Below are positions 24,639 to 34,813 of a stretch of 36,819 nucleotides of DNA, one piece after another. The notes below the pieces were generated by a model, which made no database searches, had not been told where the DNA came from, and saw only the letters and a program-made list of their open reading frames with translations. Origin of the DNA: a virus (lineage: Duplodnaviria; Caudoviricetes); the IMG/VR virus record IMGVR_UViG_3300048857_000022, positions 1 through 36,819 of that record. One strand, written 5' to 3'. Position 1 is the first letter of the stretch. The number at the start of each line of letters is the position of its first letter. The position numbers and the translations under genes were made by a program.

Positions 24639-26399
24639 ATGAACGAAGCCACTCTTACCCTGCCGATGGATACCCGACGCCAAGCCAAATTCTTGTATTG
24701 GATGGGTTGGCGTATCTCTGAAATAGCCGAAGCTACGGACGAGAAAGAAAAGACGCTGCACAGCTGGAAGACCCGCGACGAGTGGGACCGGGCCGATAAC
24801 GTCGAACGCATTGGCGGTGCGCTTGAGGCGCGCCTGGTGCAGCTGATCCTCAAGGAAGCCAAGACCGGCGGCGACTTCAAGGAGATTGATCTCTTGCATC
24901 GGCAACTGGAGCGTCAGGCGCGCATCCAGCGCTTCAAAGATGGCGGCACCGAAACCGAGCTGAACCCAAACCTTGCCAAGCGTAACGAGGGACCCAAGAA
25001 GCCGCCGAAGAAAAACGACTTTAGCGAAGAGGACATCGAGAAGCTAACCGAGGCCTTTATCGACGGCTGCTTCGATTACCAGAAGGATTGGTATCGGACC
25101 ATGAACCAGCGGACCCGGATGATCCTGAAAAGCCGGCAGATCGGGGCCACCTTCTACTTTGCCCGCGAAGCGCTAATCGATGCCCTGGTGTCTGGGCGGA
25201 ACCAGATCTTCCTGTCAGCCAGCAAGGCCCAGGCTCATCAGTTCAAGAACTACATGCAGGCCTTCGTTAATGAAGTCCTCGGTCGTCAGCTCACCGGCGA
25301 CCCCATCGTGCTGCCCAACAATGCCGAACTGCATTTTCTGGGCACCAATGCCCGTACCGCCCAGGGCCGCTCGGGCAATTTCTATTTCGACGAATTCTTC
25401 TGGACCTACAAATTCGAGGAGCTGAATAAAGTCGCCTCGGGTATGGCCCTGCACAAGAAGTGGCGAAAGACCTACTTCAGCACACCCAGCTCCATGGCCC
25501 ATGAGGCCTATAAGTGGTGGACCGGCGAGCGACTGAACAAGGGCAAGCCCACTGCGCAACACCTCAAGATCGATGTCAGCCATGATTCGCTGCAGCTCGG
25601 ACGGCTGTGTGAGGACAAGATCTGGCGACAGATCGTCACCATTCTGGATGCTGAGGCGCGCGGCTGCGATTTGTTCGACCTGGAAGAGCTGCGCATGGAG
25701 TATGCCGCCGAGGCCTTCCAGAACCTGCTCATGTGTGAGTTTGTTGACGATGGAGCCTCGATCTTTCCTTTGGCCATGCTGCAGCCGTGCATGGTGGACA
25801 GCTGGGTCGAGTGGGCCGAAGACTACAAACCCTTTGCCATGCGGCCGCTCGGTGATCGCCCGGTCTGGATTGGCTATGACCCGGCTGAAACGGGCGATAC
25901 GGCTGGCCTGGTTGTCCTGGCTCCGCCGCTGGTTCCCGGTGGCAAGTTCCGGGTCCTGGAGCGTCACCAGTTCAAGGGCATGGACTTTGCCGCCCAGGCT
26001 GAATTTATCCGCAAGGTGACCCAACGCTATTGGGTGACCTATATCGGTATCGATACCACCGGCATGGGCTCAGGCGTTGCGCAGCTGGTGAAGCAATTCT
26101 TTCCAGGCGTCACCACCTTTAGCTACTCGCCCGAGGTCAAGACGCGCCTGATCCTCAAGGCCTATGACGTGATCAAGAACGGCCGCCTCGAATTCGACGC
26201 CGGCTGGACCGACATGGCCGCTGCGCTCATGGCTATTCGCAAGACCATCACCGCAAGCGGTCGGCAGTTCACCTATACCGCGGGCCGCAGCGAAGAGACC
26301 GGCCACGCGGATCTGGCCTGGGCCTTATTTCACGCCTTACACAACGAGCCGCTCGAAGGGCAGACCACTGCCAATACCGGCTTTATGGAGATTCACTGA
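24639..26399 (+). CDS. P: Terminase large (ATPase) subunit P
   Basis: ILKSRQIGATFYFAREA, FYFDEFFW, GYDP, GHADLAWA. Confidence 0.96.
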   Translation: MNEATLTLPMDTRRQAKFLYWMGWRISEIAEATDEKEKTLHSWKTRDEWDRADNVERIGGALEARLVQLILKEAKTGGDFKEIDLLHRQLERQARIQRFKDGGTETELNPNLAKRNEGPKKPPKKNDFSEEDIEKLTEAFIDGCFDYQKDWYRTMNQRTRMILKSRQIGATFYFAREALIDALVSGRNQIFLSASKAQAHQFKNYMQAFVNEVLGRQLTGDPIVLPNNAELHFLGTNARTAQGRSGNFYFDEFFWTYKFEELNKVASGMALHKKWRKTYFSTPSSMAHEAYKWWTGERLNKGKPTAQHLKIDVSHDSLQLGRLCEDKIWRQIVTILDAEARGCDLFDLEELRMEYAAEAFQNLLMCEFVDDGASIFPLAMLQPCMVDSWVEWAEDYKPFAMRPLGDRPVWIGYDPAETGDTAGLVVLAPPLVPGGKFRVLERHQFKGMDFAAQAEFIRKVTQRYWVTYIGIDTTGMGSGVAQLVKQFFPGVTTFSYSPEVKTRLILKAYDVIKNGRLEFDAGWTDMAAALMAIRKTITASGRQFTYTAGRSEETGHADLAWALFHALHNEPLEGQTTANTGFMEIH

Positions 26400-27427
26400 T
26401 GAGCACTACCCTTCAGGATCTGCCGCCGGCATCGGTGGCAGACGAAGCCTTAAACACGGCCGGCATCGAGGCCTTTACCTTTGGCGATGCCGTTCCGGTC
26501 CTCGGCAGTCGTGAGGTGCTCGATTACCTGGAATGCTGGTTTAACGGCCGCTATTACGATCCGCCGCTTTCGCTCGATGGCCTCGCCAAGTCGGTGCGGG
26601 CCAGTGTCTATCTGCAGTCGGGCCTGAACTTCAAACGCAACATGCTGGCCCGTACCTTTGTTCCGCATAAGCTCCTGAGCCGTGCAGCGTTCGAGCAGCT
26701 GGTCCTGGACTGGCTGACCTTTGGCAATGCCTACCTGGAACGCCGCCGCTCGATGCTGGGCAGCACGCTCACGCTTTCCCCTGCCCTGGCTAAATACATG
26801 CGCCGCGGCAAGGACGATCAGTTCTATATGGTTCAGGCCTGGAGAGAAGAACACGCTTTTGAACCGGGCTCGATCTACCACCTGCGCGAAGTGGACATTA
26901 ACCAGGAGATCTACGGCCTGCCGGAGTGGATTGCTGCGTTGCAGTCGGCGCTTTTGAACGAGTCAGCCACCCTCTTCCGCCGCAAGTATTACAACAACGG
27001 CAGCCACGCCGGCTTCATCCTCTACATGACCGATCCGGCCCAGAACGAGGGCGATGTGGATGCCATGCGGCAGGCGTTAAAGTCAGCCAAGGGACCAGGC
27101 AACTTCCGTAACCTCTTCATGTATTCACCTAACGGCAAAAAGGATGGCATCCAACTGATTCCGATCAGCGAAGTGGCGGCCAAGGATGACTTTAGCTCGA
27201 TAAAAAACATTACCCGCGACGATATGCTTGCCGGCCTGCGGATTCCGCCGCAACTGATGGGCATCGTGCCGCAGAATGCCGGGGGCTTTGGCTCGATCCG
27301 GGACGCCGCGTTGATCTATGCAGCCAACGAACTCGAACCTGTCCAGGCGCGCCTGGCCCAGCTTAATGAGTGGATCGGTGATGAGGTGATCAGGTTTAAA
27401 CCCTATGAACTGGCAGCTTTGTCATAG
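26399..27427 (+). CDS. Q: Portal protein Q
   Basis: EAFTFGD...QEIYGLPE...FRRKYYNNGSHAGFILY...GPGNFRNLF. Confidence 0.96.
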   Translation: MSTTLQDLPPASVADEALNTAGIEAFTFGDAVPVLGSREVLDYLECWFNGRYYDPPLSLDGLAKSVRASVYLQSGLNFKRNMLARTFVPHKLLSRAAFEQLVLDWLTFGNAYLERRRSMLGSTLTLSPALAKYMRRGKDDQFYMVQAWREEHAFEPGSIYHLREVDINQEIYGLPEWIAALQSALLNESATLFRRKYYNNGSHAGFILYMTDPAQNEGDVDAMRQALKSAKGPGNFRNLFMYSPNGKKDGIQLIPISEVAAKDDFSSIKNITRDDMLAGLRIPPQLMGIVPQNAGGFGSIRDAALIYAANELEPVQARLAQLNEWIGDEVIRFKPYELAALS

Positions 27428-27467
27428 GTTTCTAACGATCTTGCTCGCAGAGGCAGGCGTACCTAAA

Positions 27468-27776
27468 TCAATACTCGAAATGAGTTTTCGCTTGCCCATT
27501 CTGATCAAGTTCAAGAGTGAACCATTTCCACTTGCCACCGGTATGATCAGACATGGCTTTATGCAAATCAAAAGACAGATCACTAAGTCTGACTACGGAT
27601 GTAAAAGACATCCCTATGGAATACCTAATACCTTGGAAGTAATAGGCAAAGCTTCCATCAAAGCATTCGTCGGTTGTGTCTAACTCACCTTTAAAATGTA
27701 TCGTCTCAAATGGCTCATTTACCTCGTTAAAACTGATATTTGCCATTTCATTTAAGATAGCCACTTGGTCTTGCAT
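27468..27776 (-). CDS. Putative orphan immunity protein (YezG/DUF600-like)
   Basis: Acidic 102 aa ending LHKAM..HTGGKWKWFTLELDQNGQAKTHFEY. Confidence 0.5.
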   Translation of the reverse strand: MQDQVAILNEMANISFNEVNEPFETIHFKGELDTTDECFDGSFAYYFQGIRYSIGMSFTSVVRLSDLSFDLHKAMSDHTGGKWKWFTLELDQNGQAKTHFEY

Positions 27777-27911
27777 GTGGGTCCGCTCTAGAGTCAGGTA
27801 ACCGGATTTAAACCTTATGAGCTTGCTATAGCACAGTAGCCCTGACCTAAAGACCGATTAGCTCAGCGCTCACGTGGCAGAATATATGTATCGATTTAAT
27901 AGTGGCTAGCA

Positions 27912-28484
27912 GTGATGGGAAGACCAACAAGCGGTATTGCCTGGAAGGCAGCAATCGTTGGAGGGGTGCGCTACGACTTAAATCACCTGCATCCTTATAT
28001 TTGGGAAGTGGTGATTCCTGGAAAGGAAAAAAGCGATAAGCATCCAGCCGTGCCTGAAAGAAAGATACGCGTAAACGTCTCCTTTGGGCTGCACTGTTTT
28101 GCTAGAGATCCACTGCCAAGCGAAAGGGTTAGCGATGATTTTTGGTATCAGGACAATCGAGAACGTCGAGTTTTCTGCCAGATTCGCTGGGAGCTTTCGA
28201 AGCAACTACCAGGAATCATTGCAACACTAGCGGAACGTCGCTGCATGCATACAGGCCGGGAGGAATTCGTAACGCTAGAGGTGCCTTACCAAGGAAGAAC
28301 CTTGGAATATGCAGTGTTTTTCACTGTAACCAAGGCAGGAAAAGCGGATCGGGCAGATTTGAACCTGTTTGTGAATAGTGCTCATGAGCGATACGACCCA
28401 CTCAAGTACACCAAGCCGATCAAGTTTCACTTCATCTTGTTAAACAGACTGCAAGGGAAACCCATCAAGCCGCCTCCCCGCTAA
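27912..28484 (+). CDS. YjaZ(HtrC)-like protein
   Basis: W...YDLNHL...VSFGLHCF..D...Y....ERRVFCQIR..L...H.G...L.LFVNSA...KF..I..N.L.GK, matching my recollection of E. coli YjaZ. Confidence 0.7.
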   Translation: MMGRPTSGIAWKAAIVGGVRYDLNHLHPYIWEVVIPGKEKSDKHPAVPERKIRVNVSFGLHCFARDPLPSERVSDDFWYQDNRERRVFCQIRWELSKQLPGIIATLAERRCMHTGREEFVTLEVPYQGRTLEYAVFFTVTKAGKADRADLNLFVNSAHERYDPLKYTKPIKFHFILLNRLQGKPIKPPPR

Positions 28485-28602
28485 AAAGCAAAACCCCGCA
28501 CGATGGCGGGGTTTTTTAATCCGGAGCCTCTTGGTTATCCCACTCTAGGGTGCGGGCCTCTTTCGAGGTGGGCGGGCGCTTTCACCGGTCGGCGCTACCT
28601 AT
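28483..28602 (-). ncRNA. Putative ~120-nt structured small RNA convergent with the yjaZ-like gene
   Basis: TTGACG-17bp-GAAACT promoter (28637-28609), GC-rich ORF-less body with CCTC-GAAA-GAGG hairpin, ending at the shared terminator. Confidence 0.55.
28490..28517. terminator. Bidirectional rho-independent terminator
   Basis: AAAACCCCGC-ACGATG-GCGGGGTTTT with A and T tracts on both sides. Confidence 0.85.
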
Positions 28603-28731
28603 GGATACAGTTTCCTAAAAGGTACTGCTCACGTCAACTTTTGACGTCACCTTCTGTCGCATAAGTTATGCTTAAAAACATCAAGGACAACCTTTTATCC
28701 AGACGAGAAAGCTGAATGAGAGATGGTAACT

Positions 28732-28869
28732 ATGGACAAAGAACTCTTTGATGATCTAGTCGAAAGCATGGAGCAGATTAACGAAATCGCTGCGGGGGAG
28801 CGGGAGCCCTCCCGCATCTTCGAGGTTGAGAAGGATCCAACCCACGTTATTTCTGCGCTACAGGCTTGA
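28732..28869 (+). CDS. 45-aa peptide resembling the N-terminus of NadS/HigA2-type antitoxins, lacking the HTH
   Basis: MDKELFDDLVESMEQINEIAAGEREPSRIFEVE..., translated by hand. Could be a truncated remnant. Confidence 0.5.
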   Translation: MDKELFDDLVESMEQINEIAAGEREPSRIFEVEKDPTHVISALQA

Positions 28870-28916
28870 TAGGCTGCCTGCTTGCTTTACGAAAAAGCCT
28901 CCAAATGAAGGCTTTC

Positions 28917-29315
28917 CTATGAGCTCTGTTTGGGTAATCGCGTTTTTGCACGGCTTACCCACTTGGAGTTGATATCTTCAAGGTCGGTTAGCTGGCCGGC
29001 TTCGGCTTCGGCCAATCCCTCTCGAATTGATTTTGAGTGCCACGAGTCGTCGTCCTTCAGTTCGGCCAAGCGTAGATCGTACGCGCTTTGAAGGTTCATC
29101 CAGAACTTCGCTGTAGTGCCTAAAGCATTACTGAGTAGCAGAGCCAGATCAGGTGTTATCTCCTGACGCTCACACAGAATTTCGTTCAGTGTGGTTTCTG
29201 GAATAGAGATTGTCTGAGCAAAACTTGCAGTTAAGGTACCTGACGGGTTTAGAAACTCTTCTCGCAGAATTTCTCCTGGATGAATTGGGCGCATTCCATT
29301 TTTGTGCATAGCCAT
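28917..29315 (-). CDS. higA: HigA-family antitoxin with a ParD/CopG-antitoxin-like C-terminal extension
   Basis: GMRPIHPGEILREEFL...ITPDLALLLS.ALGTTAKFWMNLQSAYDL, then WHSKSIREGLAEAEAGQLTDLEDINSKW. Confidence 0.8.
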   Translation of the reverse strand: MAMHKNGMRPIHPGEILREEFLNPSGTLTASFAQTISIPETTLNEILCERQEITPDLALLLSNALGTTAKFWMNLQSAYDLRLAELKDDDSWHSKSIREGLAEAEAGQLTDLEDINSKWVSRAKTRLPKQSS

Positions 29316-29500
29316 AAACATCCATTCATGATCTAAAGCAGAACTGCCGGTACTGGCTATCAAAGATAACAGCGATTCGAATTTAGATAGGCATTGCCGG
29401 CAGCACTTACAAATTAGCATATTTGCAATGAGCTGATCTTAAGCGATTCGCAGATGGGTATATGCATTCCGCCACAGCTCATAGCTTAAAGGTTTCAAGA

Positions 29501-29710
29501 CTACGACCTATCTATGGATTGAAGCTCTGCTAAAAGCTTTGCTGCTTTACGAGCACCGCGGCTGGCATTTCCCTCTCCTAGCTCAACAAACAGCTGATAA
29601 GTTTCATCGTCCAGCGTCATAAGCCGCTTTTGAGTTTTAATGCCTTCTGGCAAATCGGCGGCGCGCCCAGCGCCTGCACGCGCGCCGCCTCTTGCTGTTT
29701 TTTCTGTCAT
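29501..29710 (-). CDS. Small DNA-binding protein (RGGAR-GAGR motif plus RHH-like)
   Basis: MTEKTARGGARAGAGR...RLMTLDDETYQLFVELGEGNASRGAR. Confidence 0.7.
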   Translation of the reverse strand: MTEKTARGGARAGAGRAADLPEGIKTQKRLMTLDDETYQLFVELGEGNASRGARKAAKLLAELQSIDRS

Positions 29711-29738
29711 TGAGATTAACCCTTCCAATATGAAGGCC

Positions 29739-29768
29739 AAAAAAAACCGCTCCGAAGAGCGGCTTTTT
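29739..29768 (-). terminator. Rho-independent terminator
   Basis: CCGCTC-CGAA-GAGCGG flanked by A and T tracts. Confidence 0.75.
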
Positions 29769-29781
29769 CCAGCTGGCCTGC

Positions 29782-29961
29782 TTAGTGACCTAGAAACTTA
29801 GGAGCCACAACCCAAAGCAGCGCCGCAACAGTCCACACCGCACCAGTTACCAGAACTGGCTTTATAAACCATGCGGGACTGCTGAAACTTGCGGCACGCG
29901 CGTCGCTTTCGGCCTGCAGCTGCTGCAGTTCCTTAATAATGTCTTTTTCGTTGATCGGCAT
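29782..29961 (-). CDS. 59-aa protein with C-terminal TM helix
   Basis: MPINEKDIIKELQQLQAESDARAASFSSPAWFIKPVLVTGAVWTVAALLWVVAPKFLGH, with AGGAGG RBS; translated by hand. Confidence 0.7.
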   Translation of the reverse strand: MPINEKDIIKELQQLQAESDARAASFSSPAWFIKPVLVTGAVWTVAALLWVVAPKFLGH

Positions 29962-30027
29962 GGTTGCCTCCTATCGCGTGGCGTCGCCTATGGGAAAACT
30001 ATAGCCCTTAGTGCCTTTACTGTATAG

Positions 30028-30050
30028 AACCCCGCCTTTCGGCGGGGGCT
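30028..30050 (-). terminator. GC hairpin / terminator after the 65-aa gene
   Basis: CCCCGCC-TTTC-GGCGGGG. Confidence 0.6.
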
Positions 30051-30054
30051 TGGA

Positions 30055-30252
30055 TCATTTGTGAAGGTTATTTAGCAGAACACCTAATGCGCCGATCAGA
30101 CCGCTTAGGATGACTACCCAGTAACCGATTGCCTCCCTTTTTAGCTTTGCCGTTTCGGCTTTGGTTTTTTCCTCGTTTAACATTCCGATTCTTATGTCCT
30201 GAATCAGCTTGAGTCGTTCTAGCTCTTCCTTTGTTTGTCCTTTGTCTTCCAT
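30055..30252 (-). CDS. 65-aa coiled-coil protein with C-terminal TM helix
   Basis: ...KTKAETAKLKREAIGYWVVILSGLIGALGVLL; AAGGAG RBS. Confidence 0.75.
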   Translation of the reverse strand: MEDKGQTKEELERLKLIQDIRIGMLNEEKTKAETAKLKREAIGYWVVILSGLIGALGVLLNNLHK

Positions 30253-30290
30253 CGCTTCTCCTTTCTAACAAGGGCACTGCCTTGTATGAC

Positions 30291-30323
30291 TTGAATTATA
30301 TATATAATTCAAAAGAGAGGCAA
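30291..30323 (-). promoter_or_regulatory. Strong sigma70 promoter overlapped by a perfect 22-bp palindromic operator
   Basis: TTGCCT-17bp-TATAAT; TTGAATTATATATATAATTCAA (30291-30312). Confidence 0.75.
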
Positions 30324-30546
30324 GAAGTATGTTTTCATTAGGGCATCCGTCATTGAGCGCATGGGTATCGGCAGGTGCATTGACGACCAACGGTCGAAAC
30401 TCTGTAGGTAAAAATGCGGTCATTTTCATGGGAGCAATGGATACTGCTTTTCTTGTGTAAACTGCCGCTGGTCCTGCATTACCCCCAACCTGCGGCAGTT
30501 CTTTTCAACTATGAATGACCCTGCTCCAAGCATTAAGAGGTAGCCC

Positions 30547-30666
30547 ATGACGACAATTGAAAATTGCCCTTCATGCGGCACATCTGAGCTTGCACGTATG
30601 TATACCCTTAGCCTTTTATATTGCCCCGACTGCAACCTCTCGTTTGCCTGGGGCAGTCATAGCTGA
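30547..30666 (+). CDS. 39-aa zinc-ribbon microprotein
   Basis: MTTIENCPSCGTSELARMYTLSLLYCPDCNLSFAWGSHS; GAGG RBS. Confidence 0.5.
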   Translation: MTTIENCPSCGTSELARMYTLSLLYCPDCNLSFAWGSHS

Positions 30667-30678
30667 CCCTGCCAAAGT

Positions 30679-30909
30679 ATGCCCTTTGTCTCCCAACATT
30701 CTGAGTTCTTAGCGGCAGCTCAGGCCAGACTGACCTGCTCCTGTAAACGGCGCGATGCACTAATCAATATCATTAGGCATTTAGAAGAAAAGGGCATGGA
30801 CTTATGCAGTGCACGTTGAACGCTCCTAGCTATAGACGAACGTATAGAAATCCAAAGCTATCATCTGGACACGTTACTGAGGTCTAGAAGAACAAACCCT
30901 CCTGATTAA
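30679..30909 (+). pseudogene. Possible small helical protein interrupted by an in-frame TGA at 30817
   Basis: Frame reads on past the stop (...GMDLCSAR*TLLAIDERIEIQ...) to TAA at 30909. Confidence 0.3.
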
Positions 30910-30950
30910 CTCAAAACCTTAACCACCATAGTGTGCACGTAACATTTTAA

Positions 30951-34148: not shown

Positions 34149-34813
34149 TCAACATCTCCAAAGATATGACGCACCAAACGCTTAAGCTCAAAGCTGGCTT
34201 TTTGGTCTTTACGTTCAAGCTCATCGACACTCAGTCCACGACTTGATGCCACAGCAAATGCTTTCCGATCGCCAAGTGATGCATCCAAGAAAGGAAGCTG
34301 CGGGTAATGCTCAAGCACCCTTTCAGCTTCAAGATTGTCAGAAGCATTCACACCAGGGTCAGCCATAGAAAGCATGGCATGCACACGGAGAGGTTGAATC
34401 TTGGCTCGCGAGCGGGCCCGTTGTGCTTCATCTATAAGAGAAGCCATTTTGCTAAGTGCCCAAGTATCAAAGGCGCGAGGTTGGAACGGGACCACCAATA
34501 CATCGGCTAAGGCCAAGGCGGAGCGCAACGACTCGCTATCGAAACCACCACAGTCCAGGATTACGTCATCATAAAGTTTGGATTGATGCTCAACCTGTAC
34601 GTAGAAGTCATCGCCCTTCGGGTAATGGGATGCAGCAACAGCTGGTTTTACTCCATCCATTAAACGAAGCGTAATCGCCTGGCCAGAACTGTTCTGCGGA
34701 TCTCCATCGACCAGCCAAACATTCTTACCCTGATTAGCTCGTGCTACTGCTAGCTGAACTGAAGTGGTGCTCTTGCCGGTACCGCCTTTTGTATTGCCGA
34801 TGAGAACGATCAT
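34145..34813 (-). CDS. parA: Type Ib partition ATPase ParA
   Basis: KGGTGKST deviant Walker A, LVDGDPQ, VILDCGG; no N-terminal HTH. Confidence 0.93.
   Translation of the reverse strand: MIVLIGNTKGGTGKSTTSVQLAVARANQGKNVWLVDGDPQNSSGQAITLRLMDGVKPAVAASHYPKGDDFYVQVEHQSKLYDDVILDCGGFDSESLRSALALADVLVVPFQPRAFDTWALSKMASLIDEAQRARSRAKIQPLRVHAMLSMADPGVNASDNLEAERVLEHYPQLPFLDASLGDRKAFAVASSRGLSVDELERKDQKASFELKRLVRHIFGDVE

Follow-up and report, generated by a model that had tools for sequence, protein, structure and literature searches.

The window, i.e. the whole stretch of DNA analysed here, is the virus record IMGVR_UViG_3300048857_000022 (Caudoviricetes; 36,819 nt), which is complete and carries direct terminal repeats. 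On its plus strand at 27915..28484 lies a gene for a YjaZ-family (PF27200) protein of 189 amino acids (aa) counted from the ATG; an in-frame GTG at 27912 would extend it to 190 aa. It converges with a small RNA element on the minus strand, and an intrinsic terminator (28483..28516) is common to both. A preliminary description, made from the sequence of the window, had noted this layout and regarded it as a candidate protein-RNA toxin-antitoxin (TA) or defence system. The observation is confirmed and the interpretation is partly supported. YjaZ-family gene and adjoining RNA travel as one mobile unit, and in the interpretation favoured here the RNA would block a nuclease toxin.

The protein matches the NCBIfam YjaZ model PRK09717 (E 9e-11, 42.1 bits; the equivalog cut-off of 324 bits is not reached) and shares 29% identity with YjaZ of E. 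coli K-12 in a 140-aa alignment (E 1e-13), which bears out the proposed homology. PF27200 is carried by all 62 relatives checked. The protein itself had no match in Pfam, PHROGs or PADLOC, nothing below E 0.07 in a PDB profile search and no usable match in an Atlas search without PF27200; scanning 113 family members revealed no family common to two of them. A BECR/RelE-like fold had also been suggested. Among the top matches of the predicted structure, 17 of 18 are annotated as RelE/ParE/BrnT/HigB/YoeB TA toxins or a contact-dependent inhibition toxin, with weak scores (best Z 4.2, root mean square deviation 3.0 over 74 residues), but Foldseek against PDB and BFVD returned no match at E<=0.001. 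The core (residues ~50-165), whose best structural neighbours are type II RelE/ParE/BrnT/HigB (BECR) toxins, is predicted to be RelE/BECR-like, consistently but with low Z. ToxN is not among the structural matches listed, which are RelE-like and weak, and this does not exclude a ToxN-like fold; a ToxN-family sequence match was found neither in the Pfam, PADLOC and PDB profile searches nor in the family-member scans. Across homologues, H60 and R91 are invariant, and H24, R85, S95, Y132 and S155-A156-(Y/H/F)157 nearly so. The protein is a predicted ribonuclease, the conserved His, Arg and Tyr residues being the sole observation related to activity. Its gene has a weak Shine-Dalgarno sequence (-1.5 kcal/mol; -5 or better in 23/70 homologues). 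The nearest genome locus is found in Pseudomonas asuensis (97% protein identity).

The conserved body of the RNA comprises ~87 nt (28516..28602, minus strand), as delimited by class alignment and pair counts. According to the alignment, P1 pairs 28599-28592 with 28579-28571, and a pseudoknot helix joins 28588-28585 to 28524-28521. In between lie P3 with its GAAA loop (28569-28556; CCUC-GAAA-GAGG at 28568-28557), P4 with a bulge and a 6-nt loop (28555-28539) and an A-rich linker (28538-28525). The terminator hairpin at 28490-28515 has a similarly placed counterpart in most homologue loci. It is listed on the minus strand by a terminator scan, and since, by inspection, six T follow 3' of the GC stem on the plus strand, it is regarded as bidirectional, as already proposed. 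No minus-strand open reading frame (ORF) of at least 25 aa is present in the element; a 53-aa plus-strand ORF (28503-28664) overlaps it. The RNA had been described earlier as ORF-less with a GAAA hairpin. It is a single copy of ~90 nt with no tandem repeat array. An Rfam scan of the window yielded weak, terminator-driven matches and no ribozyme, riboswitch or sroH match. Folded as a single sequence, the element is no better than shuffles (z -1.04; 32/200 shuffles equally good), and its structure rests on comparison.

A σ70 promoter for the RNA is predicted at 28609..28637 on the minus strand (-35 box TTGACG 28637-28632, 17 nt, -10 box GAAACT 28614-28609), with a predicted start at ~28602. These boxes, named in the preliminary description, are present, but they score 8/12, were missed by a scan with threshold 9 and are on their own not above chance. 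Their support comes from positional conservation: a σ70-like site (>=8/12) directly 5' of the RNA occurs at 59/81 homologue loci compared with 60/3240 random positions (2 of 83 loci had too short a flank and were left out). An inverted repeat (28630-28649) covers the -35 box, and similar palindromes are found at the -35 position in L010, L012, L032, L067, L070 and L080; a possible role is that of an operator or a divergent promoter.

Conservation of the RNA across YjaZ homologues

Genomes, metagenomes, viral contigs and plasmids yielded 126 loci; 98 remained once 27 duplicates and the copy in the window itself had been removed. Eighty of these are non-redundant and have a full-length gene followed downstream by 150 nt or more of flanking sequence. 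The RNA element is present at 80/80, so the conserved downstream RNA sought in homologues exists. It was assigned mostly by covariance-model matches or class alignments, in L028, L039, L043 and L044 by inspection or weak matches, and the 80 include L018, which has a C-terminal frameshift. As the loci were found via the protein, the count tells how often the gene has an RNA beside it and not how often the RNA has a gene. In 151 Pseudomonadaceae genomes, four of which carry the gene, an RNA model found one match, at the gene; that no RNA without the gene appeared is a weak negative, since the model missed the RNAs of the three other gene-bearing genomes.

The RNAs fall into class A (with the window RNA), B, C and D (SroH, with Rfam matches) and smaller ones, and one layout fits them all: P1 5' strand, pseudoknot 5' strand, an optional hairpin, P1 3' strand, P3, P4, A-rich linker, pseudoknot 3' strand and terminator. 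The alignments show 97.9% of cells paired in class A, 97.1% in B, 90.6% in C and 99.4% in D, values that are optimistic because the structures were drawn from these same, related sequences; slid controls reach 22-46%. Two-sided changes affect 5, 11, 16 and 9 pairs, respectively, and the covariation score was matched by 0/500 shuffles in each of the four classes. Within a single class the pseudoknot helix contains one varying pair only. Across classes, with windows chosen by hand, an RNA's own strands pair (score >=9) in 81/83 cases, compared with 67.5% for strands from other classes and 40.8% for shuffled ones, and 24 distinct best-helix sequences occur. The RNA is thus predicted to fold as a pseudoknot. 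A model built from class C alone detects the window RNA at E 8.7e-5, its next match having E 2.6. In a quick protein tree the RNA classes track the protein clades, which linkage alone explains and which is not used as evidence. One SroH-type RNA (L126:949-1177) has a ~140-nt insertion in the optional hairpin with both ends intact.

Gene and RNA are convergent in most loci. On two Vibrio plasmids (L042:1262-1390, L046:1311-1399), an SroH-type RNA lies upstream and co-oriented in the order promoter-RNA-terminator-ORF, with ~40-60 nt separating the terminator from the start codon. In L021 the RNA is downstream and co-oriented with the gene, and in L129 and L130 it is displaced by 250-550 nt (E 0.27 each). 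The latter two had been considered RNA-less loci with a protein neighbour, which was rejected when the displaced RNA was found. This variable position points to an action of the RNA in trans on the protein. Seven disrupted genes with flank keep the RNA (L018, L021, L022, L091, L098, L102, L113), some of their frameshifts being possible assembly errors; at the truncated genes L020 and L109 it is absent from the flank. Loss is thus asymmetric, with none of the full-length genes at flanked loci found to lack the RNA.

Spread and relation to known systems

Homologues were found on 646 plasmid records, among them many near-identical Klebsiella copies, and in GenBank phages none was found. One carrier is a ColE1-type plasmid of 2308 bp with two annotated coding sequences (CDS) only. 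The gene htrC, i.e. yjaZ, is listed as a ColE1 cargo gene (PMC5864857). In E. coli, the gene occurs in 3741/5426 genomes and the RNA in 3743/5426, and sroH is at least 99% identical in 3734/3750 records. O157-type E. coli yjaZ (H103/H104) has a deletion. Together with the variable slot occupied in relatives of the window (see below), the plasmid copies substantiate the mobile setting assumed at the outset.

E. coli yjaZ (htrC) and SroH (RF00372, PF27200, PRK09717) resemble the window pair in protein homology, convergent layout and common terminator; in K-12, sroH is convergent and located 1 nt past yjaZ. A convergent sroH just downstream of yjaZ had been pointed out in the preliminary description. 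SroH and the window RNA have the same topology, and covariation is found in both classes. The E. coli protein differs by F24 and A95: its enterobacterial clade (L001:787-1326, L040, L041) carries the exchanges H24F and S95A, both at positions that hardly vary elsewhere in the family. The Rfam model of SroH, whose structure is limited to the terminator, does not match the window RNA and among 20 loci matches in L001, L040 and L107 only. A combined A+B+C model gives matches at E 0.5-2.6, 6/10 in that range being on SroH elements. Because this sequence link is weak, homology rests on topology, position and the partner gene. On these grounds, the window RNA is assigned to an extended SroH-like family, proposed here and defined by the predicted pseudoknotted topology beside a YjaZ gene. 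SroH is expressed, polyadenylated and accumulates in the absence of poly(A) polymerase (PMC5389530), is a PNPase target (PMC13572404) and has a patchy distribution (PMC3318445). In the literature found, YjaZ-SroH is not described as a TA system, the pair has no assigned function, yjaZ and sroH appear together in no paper and, judged by title, none deals with yjaZ function; most subscription papers and supplements, where RNA-motif screens might list the RNA, lay outside this search.

Among known systems, the type III modules ToxIN, CptIN and TenpIN are similar in combining a protein with a pseudoknotted non-coding RNA that has an A-rich stretch, and in their plasmid, phage and chromosomal spread. 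The fold of ToxN is MazF/Kid-like, whereas that of the window protein is predicted to be RelE-like. Furthermore, the type III antitoxin consists of tandem repeats and is encoded in one operon with the toxin, whereas the window RNA is single-copy, convergent, downstream and, as predicted, separately promoted. Lacking repeats, with separate convergent transcription and a different predicted fold, the module does not appear to be a member of ToxIN, CptIN or TenpIN. AbiF toxins have a HEPN fold, and the AvcID toxin is a deaminase. Searches of the module against Pfam, PADLOC and Rfam gave no match to either system. AbiF (HEPN) and AvcID are non-classical RNA-antitoxin systems that were later grouped with type III, whose operon order is promoter, RNA, terminator, toxin, the order of the Vibrio copies (PMC12283969).

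A putative RNA antitoxin and its alternatives

The pair probably constitutes a TA module: the RNA, a predicted pseudoknot with a transcript of its own, would work like a type III antitoxin and would bind and block the protein, a predicted ribonuclease of RelE/BECR fold. The RNA would be short-lived and transcribed in excess from a promoter of its own, and little of the protein would be made. Contact with the protein would probably be through the conserved P4 loop and the A-rich linker of the RNA. After loss of the element, or shut-off of host transcription by another phage, the RNA would decay and the freed nuclease would cut cellular RNA. The outcome would be addiction on plasmids and on the putative phage-plasmid studied here, possibly also abortive infection. 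In E. coli, YjaZ would have SroH as its antitoxin.

Some data weigh against this. A K-12 sroH deletion is viable and sensitive to envelope stress (PMC5389530, PMC13572404; secondary), whereas with a tight TA system the deletion should be lethal, unless yjaZ were silent or attenuated; the exchanges H24F and S95A in the E. coli clade, which might attenuate yjaZ, are a candidate explanation. One mRNA target of SroH, kbl, has been reported in vitro (PMC6172242). In addition, the class D (SroH) model has no match at the window RNA, i.e. the link to SroH is weakly detectable. The best match of this model in the window (34583-34661, E 0.042) lies inside parA and is taken as chance.

The main alternative, rather unlikely in our view, is a non-toxic ribonucleoprotein with the RNA as scaffold, activator, substrate or sensor, e.g. 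an anti-phage complex that needs both partners, the protein alone being harmless. Such a complex would entail the same co-occurrence and covariation, accords with the viable sroH deletion and would suit the slot next to the P2 portal gene, where defence genes are known to reside (PMC9122126). It fits less well with disrupted loci that keep the RNA, with the lack of intact genes seen without it, with the abundance on plasmids including one of 2.3 kb, or with the Vibrio order, which is that of type III. Improbable is a control of gene expression by the RNA, be it antisense or trans base-pairing (type I-like) or convergent transcription. The convergent layout in most loci and the target of SroH mentioned above would favour it, but the RNA overlaps the CDS by about 2 nt, at the stop codon only. 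The longest run complementary to the 5' region of its own gene averages 6.3 nt compared with 6.3 nt for non-cognate genes (n=70), and RNA-mRNA duplexes reach -44.8 kcal/mol with the own and -43.7 kcal/mol with non-cognate mRNAs (n=70); by this measure the RNA is not of type I, and the earlier argument against an antisense mechanism holds. Moreover, co-oriented, upstream and displaced copies exist, and in a compact covarying fold few nucleotides remain available for pairing.

The hepatitis delta virus (HDV) nested pseudoknot has the strand order P1-PK-[hairpin]-P1'-...-PK', with P3/L3 and its P1.1 pairing. The element's strand order resembles it, and in most class B and C members P1 begins with a G-U pair. 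That the RNA is an HDV-like ribozyme or riboswitch-like ligand binder, and the gene a companion, is nevertheless most improbable: the P3/L3-equivalent hairpin is absent in class A and has variable loops in other classes, Rfam contains no matching ribozyme or riboswitch, and promoter and terminator enclose this element and nothing else. We give equally little credence to a DNA site or leftover without functional RNA. A single-sequence fold not above shuffles and an RNA that in this virus is predicted from sequence would agree with it, but it conflicts with two-sided covariation, with the enrichment of promoter sites and with SroH being an annotated, expressed RNA (PMC5389530).

A broader proposal is put forward with more reserve and some doubt: that this is a widespread RNA-antitoxin family, the first in which a RelE/BECR-fold ribonuclease is checked by a single elaborated pseudoknot RNA from its own promoter, that it senses element loss or phage transcription shut-off, that SroH is the YjaZ antitoxin and that the module resides on hundreds of plasmids. 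The gene, so far uncharacterised, and its orphan small RNA are present in about 69% of complete E. coli genomes, and the proposal would provide one testable function for them. The proposed RNA family is far wider than Rfam's SroH and has structure that Rfam lacks. If the protein is an RNA-blocked RelE-type nuclease, a further toxin fold has acquired RNA antitoxins, here with no repeat array, and one class of systems therefore escapes repeat-based searches. Being on 646 plasmids, the module would bear on plasmid persistence and phage resistance.

The cargo slot and neighbouring genes

The window (1-36819; 30 ORFs scanned) comprises P2-type head, tail and portal genes as well as Rep3, ParA-type and resolvase genes. 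From this combination in a complete record, we infer that the virus is likely a P2-like phage-plasmid. The YjaZ-like gene and the RNA element sit in a variable cargo slot (27428..30943), which has the P2-type portal gene (26399-27427) on one side and the resolvase/Rep3/ParA block on the other. Two relatives with portal proteins 94-95% identical have both flanks in common with the window and lack the stretch with the module. L132 and L133 share portal and resolvase.

In E. coli P2-like phages, the portal-adjacent region is a defence hotspot (PMC9122126). A scan of 57/102 listed ORFs from 30/80 loci identified AbiL/AriA-like pairs 3' of the portal gene at three loci (L144, L147, L148) and nine ORFs matching methyltransferases; the remaining slot ORFs scanned have no PADLOC match and are defence candidates.

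Within the window, a 102-aa ORF (27468-27776, minus strand) is divergent from the YjaZ-like gene and has a weak YezG-like immunity match (E 0.005). A HigA-family antitoxin gene (TIGR02607, E 8e-26) is located at 28917-29420 on the minus strand, with no cognate toxin seen. Beside the module, a 48-aa ORF (28723-28869, plus strand) without a family match in library scans resembles the start of another helix-turn-helix (HTH) antitoxin. Both are possibly decayed type II systems. A minus-strand segment at 29739-29882, which overlaps a 59-aa ORF and ends in a strong terminator, matches ryfA of Rfam weakly (E 1.6e-4, 28 bits, far under the gathering score) and may be a second small RNA or a terminator only. 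At 2221-2874 on the plus strand, a gene for a WYL-domain protein adjoins an HTH gene; WYL-domain regulators are often tied to defence loci.
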